A stretch of 37,772 bases of DNA from a virus (lineage: Duplodnaviria > Heunggongvirae > Uroviricota > Caudoviricetes): IMG/VR virus record IMGVR_UViG_2690316076_000005, positions 1 to 37,772 of that record; one strand, written 5' to 3'. The translations under genes and the position numbers were made by a program. The notes below the pieces were generated by a model. It was not told the DNA's origin. It ran no database searches and saw nothing but the letters and a program-made list of their open reading frames with translations. This document shows, one piece after another, positions 36,206 through 37,772 of this stretch. The first letter of the stretch is position 1, and each line of letters opens with the position of its first letter.

Positions 36206-36241
36206 TTTTCCCGGGTGCAGCCGGTTTTGATGGAGAAAATT

Positions 36242-36523
36242 ATGAACACCTTGTTTTTACTGATGGCTGAATTCAATACCCCAAACATTGAACTCTCAGC
36301 AGTTAGCCAAAAGTACTTTGGTATGAGTCCAGCCACGGCAGAAGCAAAAGCAAACGCTTGTAAGTTGCCCGTTCCAACATATCGCATCGGCACATCACAA
36401 AAAGCAAAACGTTGCATCAATATTCAGGATCTTGCGGAATACATAGACAAAAGGCGAGAAGAAGGACGTATCGAGTGGGAACAGGTCAGAACAGTCAAAC
36501 AGAAGGGCAAAGAAAATCACTAA
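36242..36523 (+). CDS. PrtN-like / excisionase-like small DNA-binding protein
   Basis: Start at the ATG with SD ggaga; MNTLFLLMAEFNTPNIELSAVSQKYFGM resembles the PrtN family; last gene of the early-left operon. Confidence 0.5.
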   Translation: MNTLFLLMAEFNTPNIELSAVSQKYFGMSPATAEAKANACKLPVPTYRIGTSQKAKRCINIQDLAEYIDKRREEGRIEWEQVRTVKQKGKENH

Positions 36524-36529
36524 AGAAAA

Positions 36530-36549
36530 AACCCGCCTGAAGGCGGGTT
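36530..36549. terminator. bidirectional intrinsic terminator
   Basis: AACCCGCC-TGAA-GGCGGGTT flanked by an A-run and a T-run, between convergent genes. Confidence 0.75.
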
Positions 36550-36570
36550 TTCAAAAAGCACCAGCTATGA

Positions 36571-36744
36571 TCATGCTGCTTTGAGACGACGAAGCTTACC
36601 CTGCTGCTCTTTACCAGAGACAGTAGCGTGAGTGAACGCATTAGGAGCAGCCTTCATCAGAACTTCAACAGCAGCACCCATACCTACGAATGCTTTCATT
36701 GTGTCGAACTTAACCTGTGGCTTGGTTGCTTTTTGATCTTCCAT
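36571..36744 (-). CDS. small 57-aa ORF, missing from the ORF track
   Basis: Own translation: MEDQKATKPQVKFDTMKAFVGMGAAVEVLMKAAPNAFTHATVSGKEQQGKLRRLKAA; ATG with SD ggag; lies between the candidate toxin gene and the terminator. Confidence 0.35.
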   Translation of the reverse strand: MEDQKATKPQVKFDTMKAFVGMGAAVEVLMKAAPNAFTHATVSGKEQQGKLRRLKAA

Positions 36745-36783
36745 AGAAAACTCCAGAAGTTATACCGAAACAATTCCTGTTGT

Positions 36784-37203
36784 TTACTCATCATCAATAG
36801 ATGATACGCAATATTTATTTTTAAATTTAAGGTTCTTTGGCGTAACTTCATCAGAGATATCAAAACCGTCCAGAATTCTATTGAATGTAGCTTCTGGCAT
36901 ATCATCATGAACAGAAATCTCACCCGATCGCAGCTTTCTAACCATGTTATCCACTCGCCAAATTATAGCTTCAGCGTAAACAACATAACTTGGATGCTTG
37001 ATAAAGCGATGATCACCAGAATTCAAGACGCAAGACGGATCGTGGGGGACACCATCCTTGATACTAGAAATATTAACAACTAAAACACAATAACAATCGT
37101 TAACGGGGTAATAAACAGGATCATTACAAATCACATGAAGATGATTGCATGGTCCAGTTGGGGCAAGCACAGTTCCTTTCCTGTATGGCTGATAATCCGT
37201 CAT
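36784..37203 (-). CDS. unrecognised 139-aa Cys/His-rich protein, candidate toxin/effector partner
   Basis: ATG overlaps the stop of the Panacea-like gene (ATGA); AT-rich; C19/H21/H23/C26/C37/C39 cluster; no motif recognised. Confidence 0.5.
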   Translation of the reverse strand: MTDYQPYRKGTVLAPTGPCNHLHVICNDPVYYPVNDCYCVLVVNISSIKDGVPHDPSCVLNSGDHRFIKHPSYVVYAEAIIWRVDNMVRKLRSGEISVHDDMPEATFNRILDGFDISDEVTPKNLKFKNKYCVSSIDDE

Positions 37204-37772
37204 GATAATTGCAAAGAAAATTCCTTAAGTTTCTGAGATTCTTCCATTTTGCCAATTATGCGATTAGCCTCATCCTCGCTTTTACCCTCACTGATCAGCA
37301 TTTCTTTCAGGTCTATAGGCTTACGAGAATTGCCAGGATCGTGCCACTCTGGACAAACGCTTTCTAAATGCGTCATATTTGCGAGATCAAATCGGTTCAT
37401 ATGCCCATACCGAGAATAGATTTCATCTAAAATCCGGATATCTGCACGACTCAATTCATCAAAGACCTCGTCTGCATCCATTTCCCTCGGATCTGAACGC
37501 AACGATACATTATGCCCGTTCGTCTCTATCAAGTTGTACCAGTAGTCACCAATGCCTTCAGCCTTACCGCGAATCAAGTTCAGCGTATTCGACATGACTG
37601 GTCCAAATTTCATAGAGTAAAGGCTATCTTCGCCGATCATCCTGCCATGCTTCAAAATCGACTGGCGGTTAGACAGATAGAGCAGCTTCATCAATTTCAG
37701 ATATGCCATGCGCCCACCTCTCTTAAGAAGTAGGTATGCAGCCATTTGAGCTACTTTTTCTTCGCAAAACAT
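37200..37772 (-). CDS. Panacea-domain (DUF4065, SocA-like) protein, candidate antitoxin
   Basis: YLKLMKLLYLSNR...SLYSMKFGPV resembles the DUF4065 core (KLQKLLY...W.YGPV); ATG is the last codon of the window, so the 5-prime end may be truncated. Confidence 0.6.
   Translation of the reverse strand: MFCEEKVAQMAAYLLLKRGGRMAYLKLMKLLYLSNRQSILKHGRMIGEDSLYSMKFGPVMSNTLNLIRGKAEGIGDYWYNLIETNGHNVSLRSDPREMDADEVFDELSRADIRILDEIYSRYGHMNRFDLANMTHLESVCPEWHDPGNSRKPIDLKEMLISEGKSEDEANRIIGKMEESQKLKEFSLQLS

Follow-up and report, generated by a model that had tools for sequence, protein, structure and literature searches.

The region considered here lies at the end of a 37,772-nucleotide stretch of phage DNA (the window) and is 99.9% identical to phage Lys8385Vzw and to a prophage of E. 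coli O103 RM8385. It contains two overlapping genes, a putative Panacea antitoxin gene (PanA) and a candidate toxin gene (PanT), in the following setting:

36527..36552, minus strand: strong intrinsic-terminator-like hairpin, an 11-bp stem followed by a T run
36571..36744, minus strand: orf57, 57 aa, PHROG 2741 (function not annotated), 39 nt downstream of PanT
36758..37772: cargo segment that mEp460, a related phage, does not have
36784..37203, minus strand: PanT, candidate toxin gene, ATG start, 139 aa; MazF/Kid/CcdB-like fold in the AlphaFold2 model
37200..37203, minus strand: 4-nt ATGA overlap of the PanA stop and the PanT start
37200..37772, minus strand: PanA, putative antitoxin gene, 190 aa; Panacea domain (Pfam PF13274) at residues 27-137

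In the circular phage the gene order is xis (PrtN-like), orf57, PanT, PanA, the attP gap and int. In the lysogen the PanA-PanT pair comes last before a truncated fragment of dusA, the tRNA-dihydrouridine synthase gene (L001, 7027-7131); as the pair abuts this fragment just beyond the end of the window, dusA appears to be the integration site of the prophage. Sequence similarity to mEp460 stops at position 36757, and in that phage the slot between orf57 and attP/int is filled by an unrelated 177-aa ORF, gp23 (L028, 3442-3975), with no Pfam match. Since the two phages share sequence up to this point and carry unrelated genes in the slot, the PanA-PanT pair can be regarded as exchangeable cargo beside attP. 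This looks like a position of variable cargo, where other genes for defence or exclusion may be found. The presence of orf57 in mEp460, which is without the pair, makes orf57 part of the phage backbone; for the same reason it was rejected as a third toxin-antitoxin component. It is probably co-transcribed with PanA and PanT, and the hairpin, as predicted from its sequence, would end this three-gene transcript. The next gene, at 36215-36523 on the plus strand, is annotated as a 'pyocin activator PrtN family' protein; it matches a PHROG excisionase (E = 8e-40) and carries the annotation excisionase in mEp460, so by sequence this gene most likely encodes the Xis of the phage and not a regulator of pyocins.

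The original prediction had placed a 139-aa reading frame at 36784-37203, with a cluster of Cys and His residues near its amino-terminus. The frame is present on the minus strand and starts with ATG; its translation is MTDYQPYRKGTVLAPTGPCNHLHVICNDPVYYPVNDCYCVLVVNISS...SSIDDE. Cysteines are found at positions 19, 26, 37, 39, 58 and 132, and histidines at 21, 23, 54, 65, 70 and 99. The positions that had been listed are correct, with Cys58 left off the list; the codons for Cys19, His21, His23, Asp55, Cys58 and His65 were checked by hand against the DNA. Together, Cys and His make up 12 of the 139 residues (8.6%), about 2.5 times the E. coli average, assumed to be about 3.4%. This enrichment is modest but real, with a binomial probability of about 0.003 overall and about 1e-4 for residues 1-70. 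An acidic carboxy-terminus had also been pointed out. The protein does end in SSIDDE, but this tail belongs to a variable region, is modelled with a pLDDT below 50 and is missing from most homologues.

RefSeq starts the protein at an internal GTG, giving 128 residues (WP_014640052.1), and the GenBank phage record carries the 139-residue form. Residues 1-11 are conserved in homologues (Met1, Pro6 and Gly10), and the ATG at 37203 shares the sequence ATGA with the stop codon of PanA; this ATG is therefore the better start, and the corrected length is 139 residues, not 128. Hundreds of E. coli records probably carry the wrong start codon for this gene. The stretch affected by the RefSeq/PGAP choice is 37170-37203 on the minus strand, where the 11 codons upstream of the GTG are kept in homologues. 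A further peculiarity of database handling is that the 90%-identity protein cluster with PanT (in its 128- and 139-residue forms) also includes the 190-residue PanA, which is the cluster representative; full-length PanT was consequently missing from the first homologue search.

PanA adjoins PanT on its 5' side, on the same strand. Its ATG is formed by the final three bases of the window, and a GAGG ribosome-binding site lies just outside, as would any promoter. The protein matches PF13274 (SocA_Panacea, E = 2e-19), is named 'Panacea domain-containing protein' in RefSeq and has a conserved carboxy-terminal extension of about 50 residues. From its sequence, the ATGA overlap would couple the translation of PanA and PanT. 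A sigma-70-like site is located about 127 nt upstream of PanA; as such sites are no commoner there than in shuffled sequence, it is not counted as evidence. Beside PanT we found no tandem-repeat RNA antitoxin and no Rfam family above threshold. A type III RNA antitoxin or other RNA element was therefore rejected, a protein antitoxin being present instead, and this distinguishes PanT from the type III toxins ToxN, AbiQ and CptN.

The association of the two genes is conserved. A scan of one genome per species yielded 26 PanT loci, and in 23 of them a complete ORF of about 185-195 residues lies directly upstream on the same strand; in a twenty-fourth the upstream ORF is masked and partial. The spacing in the 23 complete pairs is a 4-nt overlap in 12, a 1-nt overlap in one and a gap of at most 33 nt in the rest. 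PF13274 was matched by all 23 upstream ORFs scanned (the PanA of the window and those of 22 genome loci). Three distant PanT members (31-37% identity) led to seven metagenome loci, all seven with PanA upstream and a 4-nt overlap, so order and overlap are kept from 31% to 86% identity. Genes near these distant pairs include ApeA-NTD/HEPN_Apea, Fic, RelE, Abi_2, restriction-modification and integrase genes (L030, 2231-3724; L033-L036), and such neighbourhoods look like defence islands or mobile elements. Among 5,426 complete E. coli genomes, the PanT and PanA genes are each matched in 208 (about 4%; the two sets were counted separately). The matches are always chromosomal, and O157 and O103 strains are among them.

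Pairs of this kind have been known since 2022, when Panacea antitoxins were described to be paired with dozens of toxin families, termed PanT (Kurata et al. 2022, PNAS; PMC8832971), and the E. coli prophage PanT is a further member. Nine PanA-PanT pairs were validated in that paper, one of them from Pseudomonas moraviensis (WP_083201923.1, cluster T6). The P. moraviensis toxin is reported to have no CDD match and nothing beyond an HHpred similarity to EndoA/PemK/MazF; its toxicity was neutralised by PanA, with which it co-purified, and it specifically inhibited 35S-Met incorporation, pointing to translation, not replication (PMC8832971). Its RNase activity is presented there as a prediction. 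Dataset S1 of the same paper lists under T6 the protein WP_101821906.1 (Yersiniaceae bacterium 2016Iso4) and an entry from Pantoea septica LMG 5345, both in antitoxin-toxin order, with overlaps of -1 and -4. The E. coli prophage PanT shares 57% identity with WP_101821906.1 along 93% of its own length, and the loci of both strains, found in our genome scan, show the overlaps of -1 and -4 as listed. By sequence, the E. coli prophage PanT is thus a member of PanAT toxin cluster T6. The termini of the validated P. moraviensis toxin, taken from published primers, are MPGNIL...IRQNNF (PMC8832971). Compared by termini only, these fit a Pseudomonas subfamily with the pattern MPG[NT][IV][FL]QKGTLLIPTG...RF[LIM][KR]QHxx, which is 40% identical to the E. 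coli prophage PanT and keeps His21, Asp55, Cys58 and His65.

The two systems share a standalone Panacea antitoxin upstream of an overlapping toxin of about 130-140 residues, and both toxins lack a CDD/Pfam match and have a remote similarity to MazF. They differ in location: the E. coli pair occupies a lambdoid prophage cargo slot, whereas the P. moraviensis pair lies on the chromosome, at a locus flagged 'NotPhage'. In the literature, toxicity, its neutralisation by PanA, formation of a complex and the translation block have been shown for this homologue only, the one family member with a genetic test behind it, and would by analogy extend to the prophage protein; we found no paper with a biochemical or phage-defence test of this PanT family. 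On these grounds it is very probable that PanT is a toxin neutralised by PanA. Alternatively, PanT could be an accessory protein of the phage that does no harm and only accompanies a Panacea-domain gene: several predicted PanT candidates were 'not toxic' in the assay of Kurata et al. (PMC8832971), and the toxicity data come from the homologue. Such a passenger is nevertheless very improbable, given that order and overlap persist over so wide a range of identity and that another T6 toxin has been validated. The E. coli genomes argue in the same direction, with PanT truncated in five of 208 and PanA at least 80% covered in all 208.

The original prediction had found no recognisable family for the protein. 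This holds for Pfam (E <= 1), NCBIfam and PADLOC, in which PanT has no match, and for PDB sequences, in which a single-sequence query and two profiles gave no informative match; matches to ICMT, DapC and hemocyanin were dismissed as noise, being far below cut-offs. It does not hold for PHROG 19071 (function not annotated), which PanT matches with E = 7e-32, and the family is in fact very large. A profile search of 1.84 billion representatives returned 2,693 proteins at E <= 1e-3, of which 928 remain at E <= 1e-10, that is, at least 2,693 clusters at 50% identity. Close homologues (47-79% identity) come from Enterobacterales, Vibrio and Shewanella and are all annotated 'hypothetical', and 102 diverse family members gave no Pfam match at E <= 0.01.

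Conservation was assessed in an alignment of 127 sequences, consisting of 126 representatives at 50% identity and the query. Residues conserved in at least 90% are His21, Leu22, Asp55, Cys58, Gly63, His65, Phe67, Ser72, Tyr76, Gly113 and Ser117. His21, Asp55, Cys58 and His65 are each conserved in at least 97%. They are encoded as follows:

37141..37143, minus strand: His21 codon, the sole residue without substitution among the family sequences examined
37009..37041, minus strand: loop motif D-x2-C-x4-G-x-H, encoding Asp55, Cys58, Gly63 and His65
37039-37041, 37030-37032 and 37009-37011, minus strand: the codons of Asp55, Cys58 and His65, respectively

His21 is never substituted in the aligned sequences and is a gap in one that is shorter at the amino-terminus. 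Cys58 is replaced by Val in three representatives, His65 by Tyr or Val in three and Asp55 by Glu or Tyr in four; these exceptions occur singly, the other three residues of the set being retained. Among close relatives, His21, His23, Cys26, Asp55, Cys58 and His65 are invariant. Cys58 is the sole Cys conserved throughout the family. The other positions behave differently: Cys19, Cys37, Cys39, His54 and His99 are not conserved, and His23 and Cys26 are kept only in close enterobacterial relatives. A metal site formed by the CNHLHVIC...DCYC segment, as originally suggested, does not agree with this pattern, since Cys19, His23, Cys26, Cys37 and Cys39 are not conserved family-wide, and a zinc-knuckle-type site in this segment was rejected for that reason. 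The variable positions are instead occupied by aromatic residues (position 23, Phe/His/Tyr; position 54, Tyr/His/Phe), basic residues (position 70, His/Arg/Lys; position 99, Lys/His/Arg) or hydrophobic core residues (position 26, Leu/Cys/Met), and the hydroxyl residues Ser or Thr are found at positions 46 and 47. Judged from the alignment, the variable Cys and His positions look like parts of a nucleic-acid-binding surface and of the hydrophobic core, unlike metal ligands. What survives of the metal-site idea is a reduced form, in which His21, Asp55, Cys58 and His65 are possible ligands.

The AlphaFold2 model of PanT, calculated with 37 homologues, is confident (pLDDT 92.4, pTM 0.86). When it was compared with the PDB using Foldseek, the best 50 matches were all MazF structures, the lowest E-value being 1.5e-3 and the TM-scores about 0.5-0.65; the best viral fold matches are PemK-like. 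From these matches the predicted fold is MazF/Kid/CcdB-like, with the SH3-like barrel typical of MazF and CcdB. A resemblance to MazF/PemK had been put forward as weak and unconvincing; at the level of the modelled fold it is stronger than that, and at the level of sequence profiles it is not significant. MazF and Kid outscore CcdB, which bears on whether PanT could be a CcdB-like DNA gyrase poison or another non-catalytic binder, its conserved residues forming a binding surface. The effect of the validated T6 homologue is specific to translation and does not extend to replication, the partner protein is PanA and not CcdA, and invariant His, Asp, Cys and His residues are seen more typically in catalytic sites. 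Together with the fold scores, these points make a gyrase poison extremely improbable.

Within the model, His21 sits on strand beta2. Asp55, Cys58 and His65 lie on a loop of 24 residues (48-71) that has no secondary structure and is predicted to be well ordered, with a pLDDT of about 96. An hhalign comparison of the PanT family profile with a five-sequence profile of MazF, Kid, EndoA and ChpBK gave a probability of 0.4%, which is not significant; PanT is accordingly not assigned to the Pfam PemK family (PF02452). The catalytic residues of MazF are Arg29 and Thr52 in EcMazF and Arg25 and Thr48 in BsMazF. In the global alignment, which is not significant, His21 falls on Arg29 of E. coli MazF and Ser46/Ser47 fall on Thr52. 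When the alignment is forced in this way, the MazF S1-S2 loop is deleted and Asp55, Cys58 and His65 fall within a loop extended to about 24 residues, in agreement with the order of secondary structure elements. The non-significant profile comparison makes the equivalences of His21 with Arg29 and of Ser46/Ser47 with Thr52 tentative.

With this reservation, PanT differs from MazF, PemK (Kid) and EndoA in several respects. It has no sequence-level match to them and is without the S1-S2 loop. An invariant His stands where MazF has its catalytic Arg in the tentative alignment, and the family alignment contains no conserved Arg. The extra loop of about 24 residues bearing Asp55, Cys58 and His65 is accompanied by two extra carboxy-terminal helices. 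Finally, its partner is PanA, with a Panacea domain, and not an antitoxin of the MazE/PemI type.

The conserved set might bind zinc or another metal, either to hold loop 48-71 in place or for catalysis, and this would be compatible with PanT being a toxin. His, Asp, Cys and His are a chemically valid set of zinc ligands. Four potential ligands conserved in at least 97% of 127 sequences, in a protein enriched in Cys and His, and placed by the model on strand beta2 and a loop of high confidence, speak for such a site. Set against this, the single replacements of Cys58 by Val, of His65 by Tyr or Val and of Asp55 by Glu or Tyr are atypical of an obligatory tetrahedral site; among the Pfam and NCBIfam entries that describe metal binding, none is matched by the family, the remaining Cys and His residues vary in patterns unlike those of ligands, and MazF-fold RNases are metal-independent. 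We regard a metal site as unlikely.

The conserved gene pair, the modelled fold and the place of PanT in T6 are results of the present analysis; what we infer is the chemistry of an RNase, the part played by each residue, the trigger and a role in defence. In the mechanism we propose, PanA and PanT would be translated from one transcript, coupled through the ATGA overlap, and PanA would bind PanT directly and hold it inactive. Once PanA is lost or displaced, free PanT would halt protein synthesis, most likely as a metal-independent, sequence-specific endoribonuclease. His21 would take the place of the catalytic Arg of MazF, and the conserved Ser/Thr46-Ser/Thr47 pair the role of its catalytic Thr, holding the scissile phosphate. 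The remainder of the active site would be supplied by Asp55, Cys58 and His65 from the long, ordered loop; His21 and His65 may act as an acid/base pair, and the aromatic and basic surface positions may bind RNA. Some properties of PanT speak against an RNase: the canonical Arg is missing and the S1-S2 loop is deleted in the sequence, an invariant Cys is unusual for a metal-independent RNase, and PanT has a slightly acidic pI of 5.6 (6.3 when the tail is left off) compared with MazF and Kid (8.5-10.6), although the family mean is 7.8. RNase chemistry is marginally favoured.

The missing Arg would also fit a MazF-fold enzyme with a triad of Cys58, a His and Asp55, whose activity would be that of a protease, deamidase or transferase and whose substrate would belong to the translation machinery rather than being RNA. 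The invariant Cys, His and Asp resemble a catalytic triad, and the sole read-out reported for the family, the loss of 35S-Met incorporation, cannot tell RNA from protein targets (PMC8832971). We nonetheless consider an enzyme of this type improbable. A broader proposal, which we offer tentatively and would not bet on, is that the PanT family forms a mechanistically distinct branch of the MazF fold, in which a centre of His21, Asp55, Cys58 and His65 replaces the arginine-based site and acts on another target, with the prophage PanA sensing for abortive-infection defence. Such a centre could be zinc-dependent, Cys-dependent or a His-His acid/base RNase site, and its target could be a specific tRNA, rRNA or a protein of the translation apparatus. 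The passages of PMC8832971 that were searched contain no mention of the conserved His/Asp/Cys/His set.

Returning to the metal-independent RNase, the likely role of the pair would be to defend against other phages in the manner of abortive infection, or else to stabilise the prophage. The full reading, in which PanA and PanT are prophage cargo with coupled translation, PanT is a MazF-fold metal-independent RNase and the pair serves in defence or stabilisation, is in our view rather likely. Standalone Panacea domains neutralise toxins directly, and Panacea has been proposed as a sensor (PMC10440598). For possible triggering of the E. coli prophage pair, CapRel(SJ46) offers a model with a different toxin, a toxSAS enzyme fused to its antitoxin domain, whereas PanT is a separate MazF-fold protein. 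CapRel(SJ46) (Zhang et al. 2022, Nature) is reportedly prophage-encoded, and its antitoxin module, a relative of PanA, is reported to sense phages.

A gene that 208 of 5,426 complete E. coli genomes (about 4%) carry under the annotation 'hypothetical protein' is thereby given a working function, and its position in a prophage cargo slot makes it a candidate for a role in excluding phages or maintaining the prophage. What remains of interest is the family itself, thousands of proteins with a predicted MazF fold, no Pfam model and a non-canonical conserved His/Asp/Cys/His set. In E. coli, PanT is better conserved than PanA, with at least 99% identity in 154 genomes as against 72, and the greater divergence of PanA hints at a faster evolution of the antitoxin or sensor.
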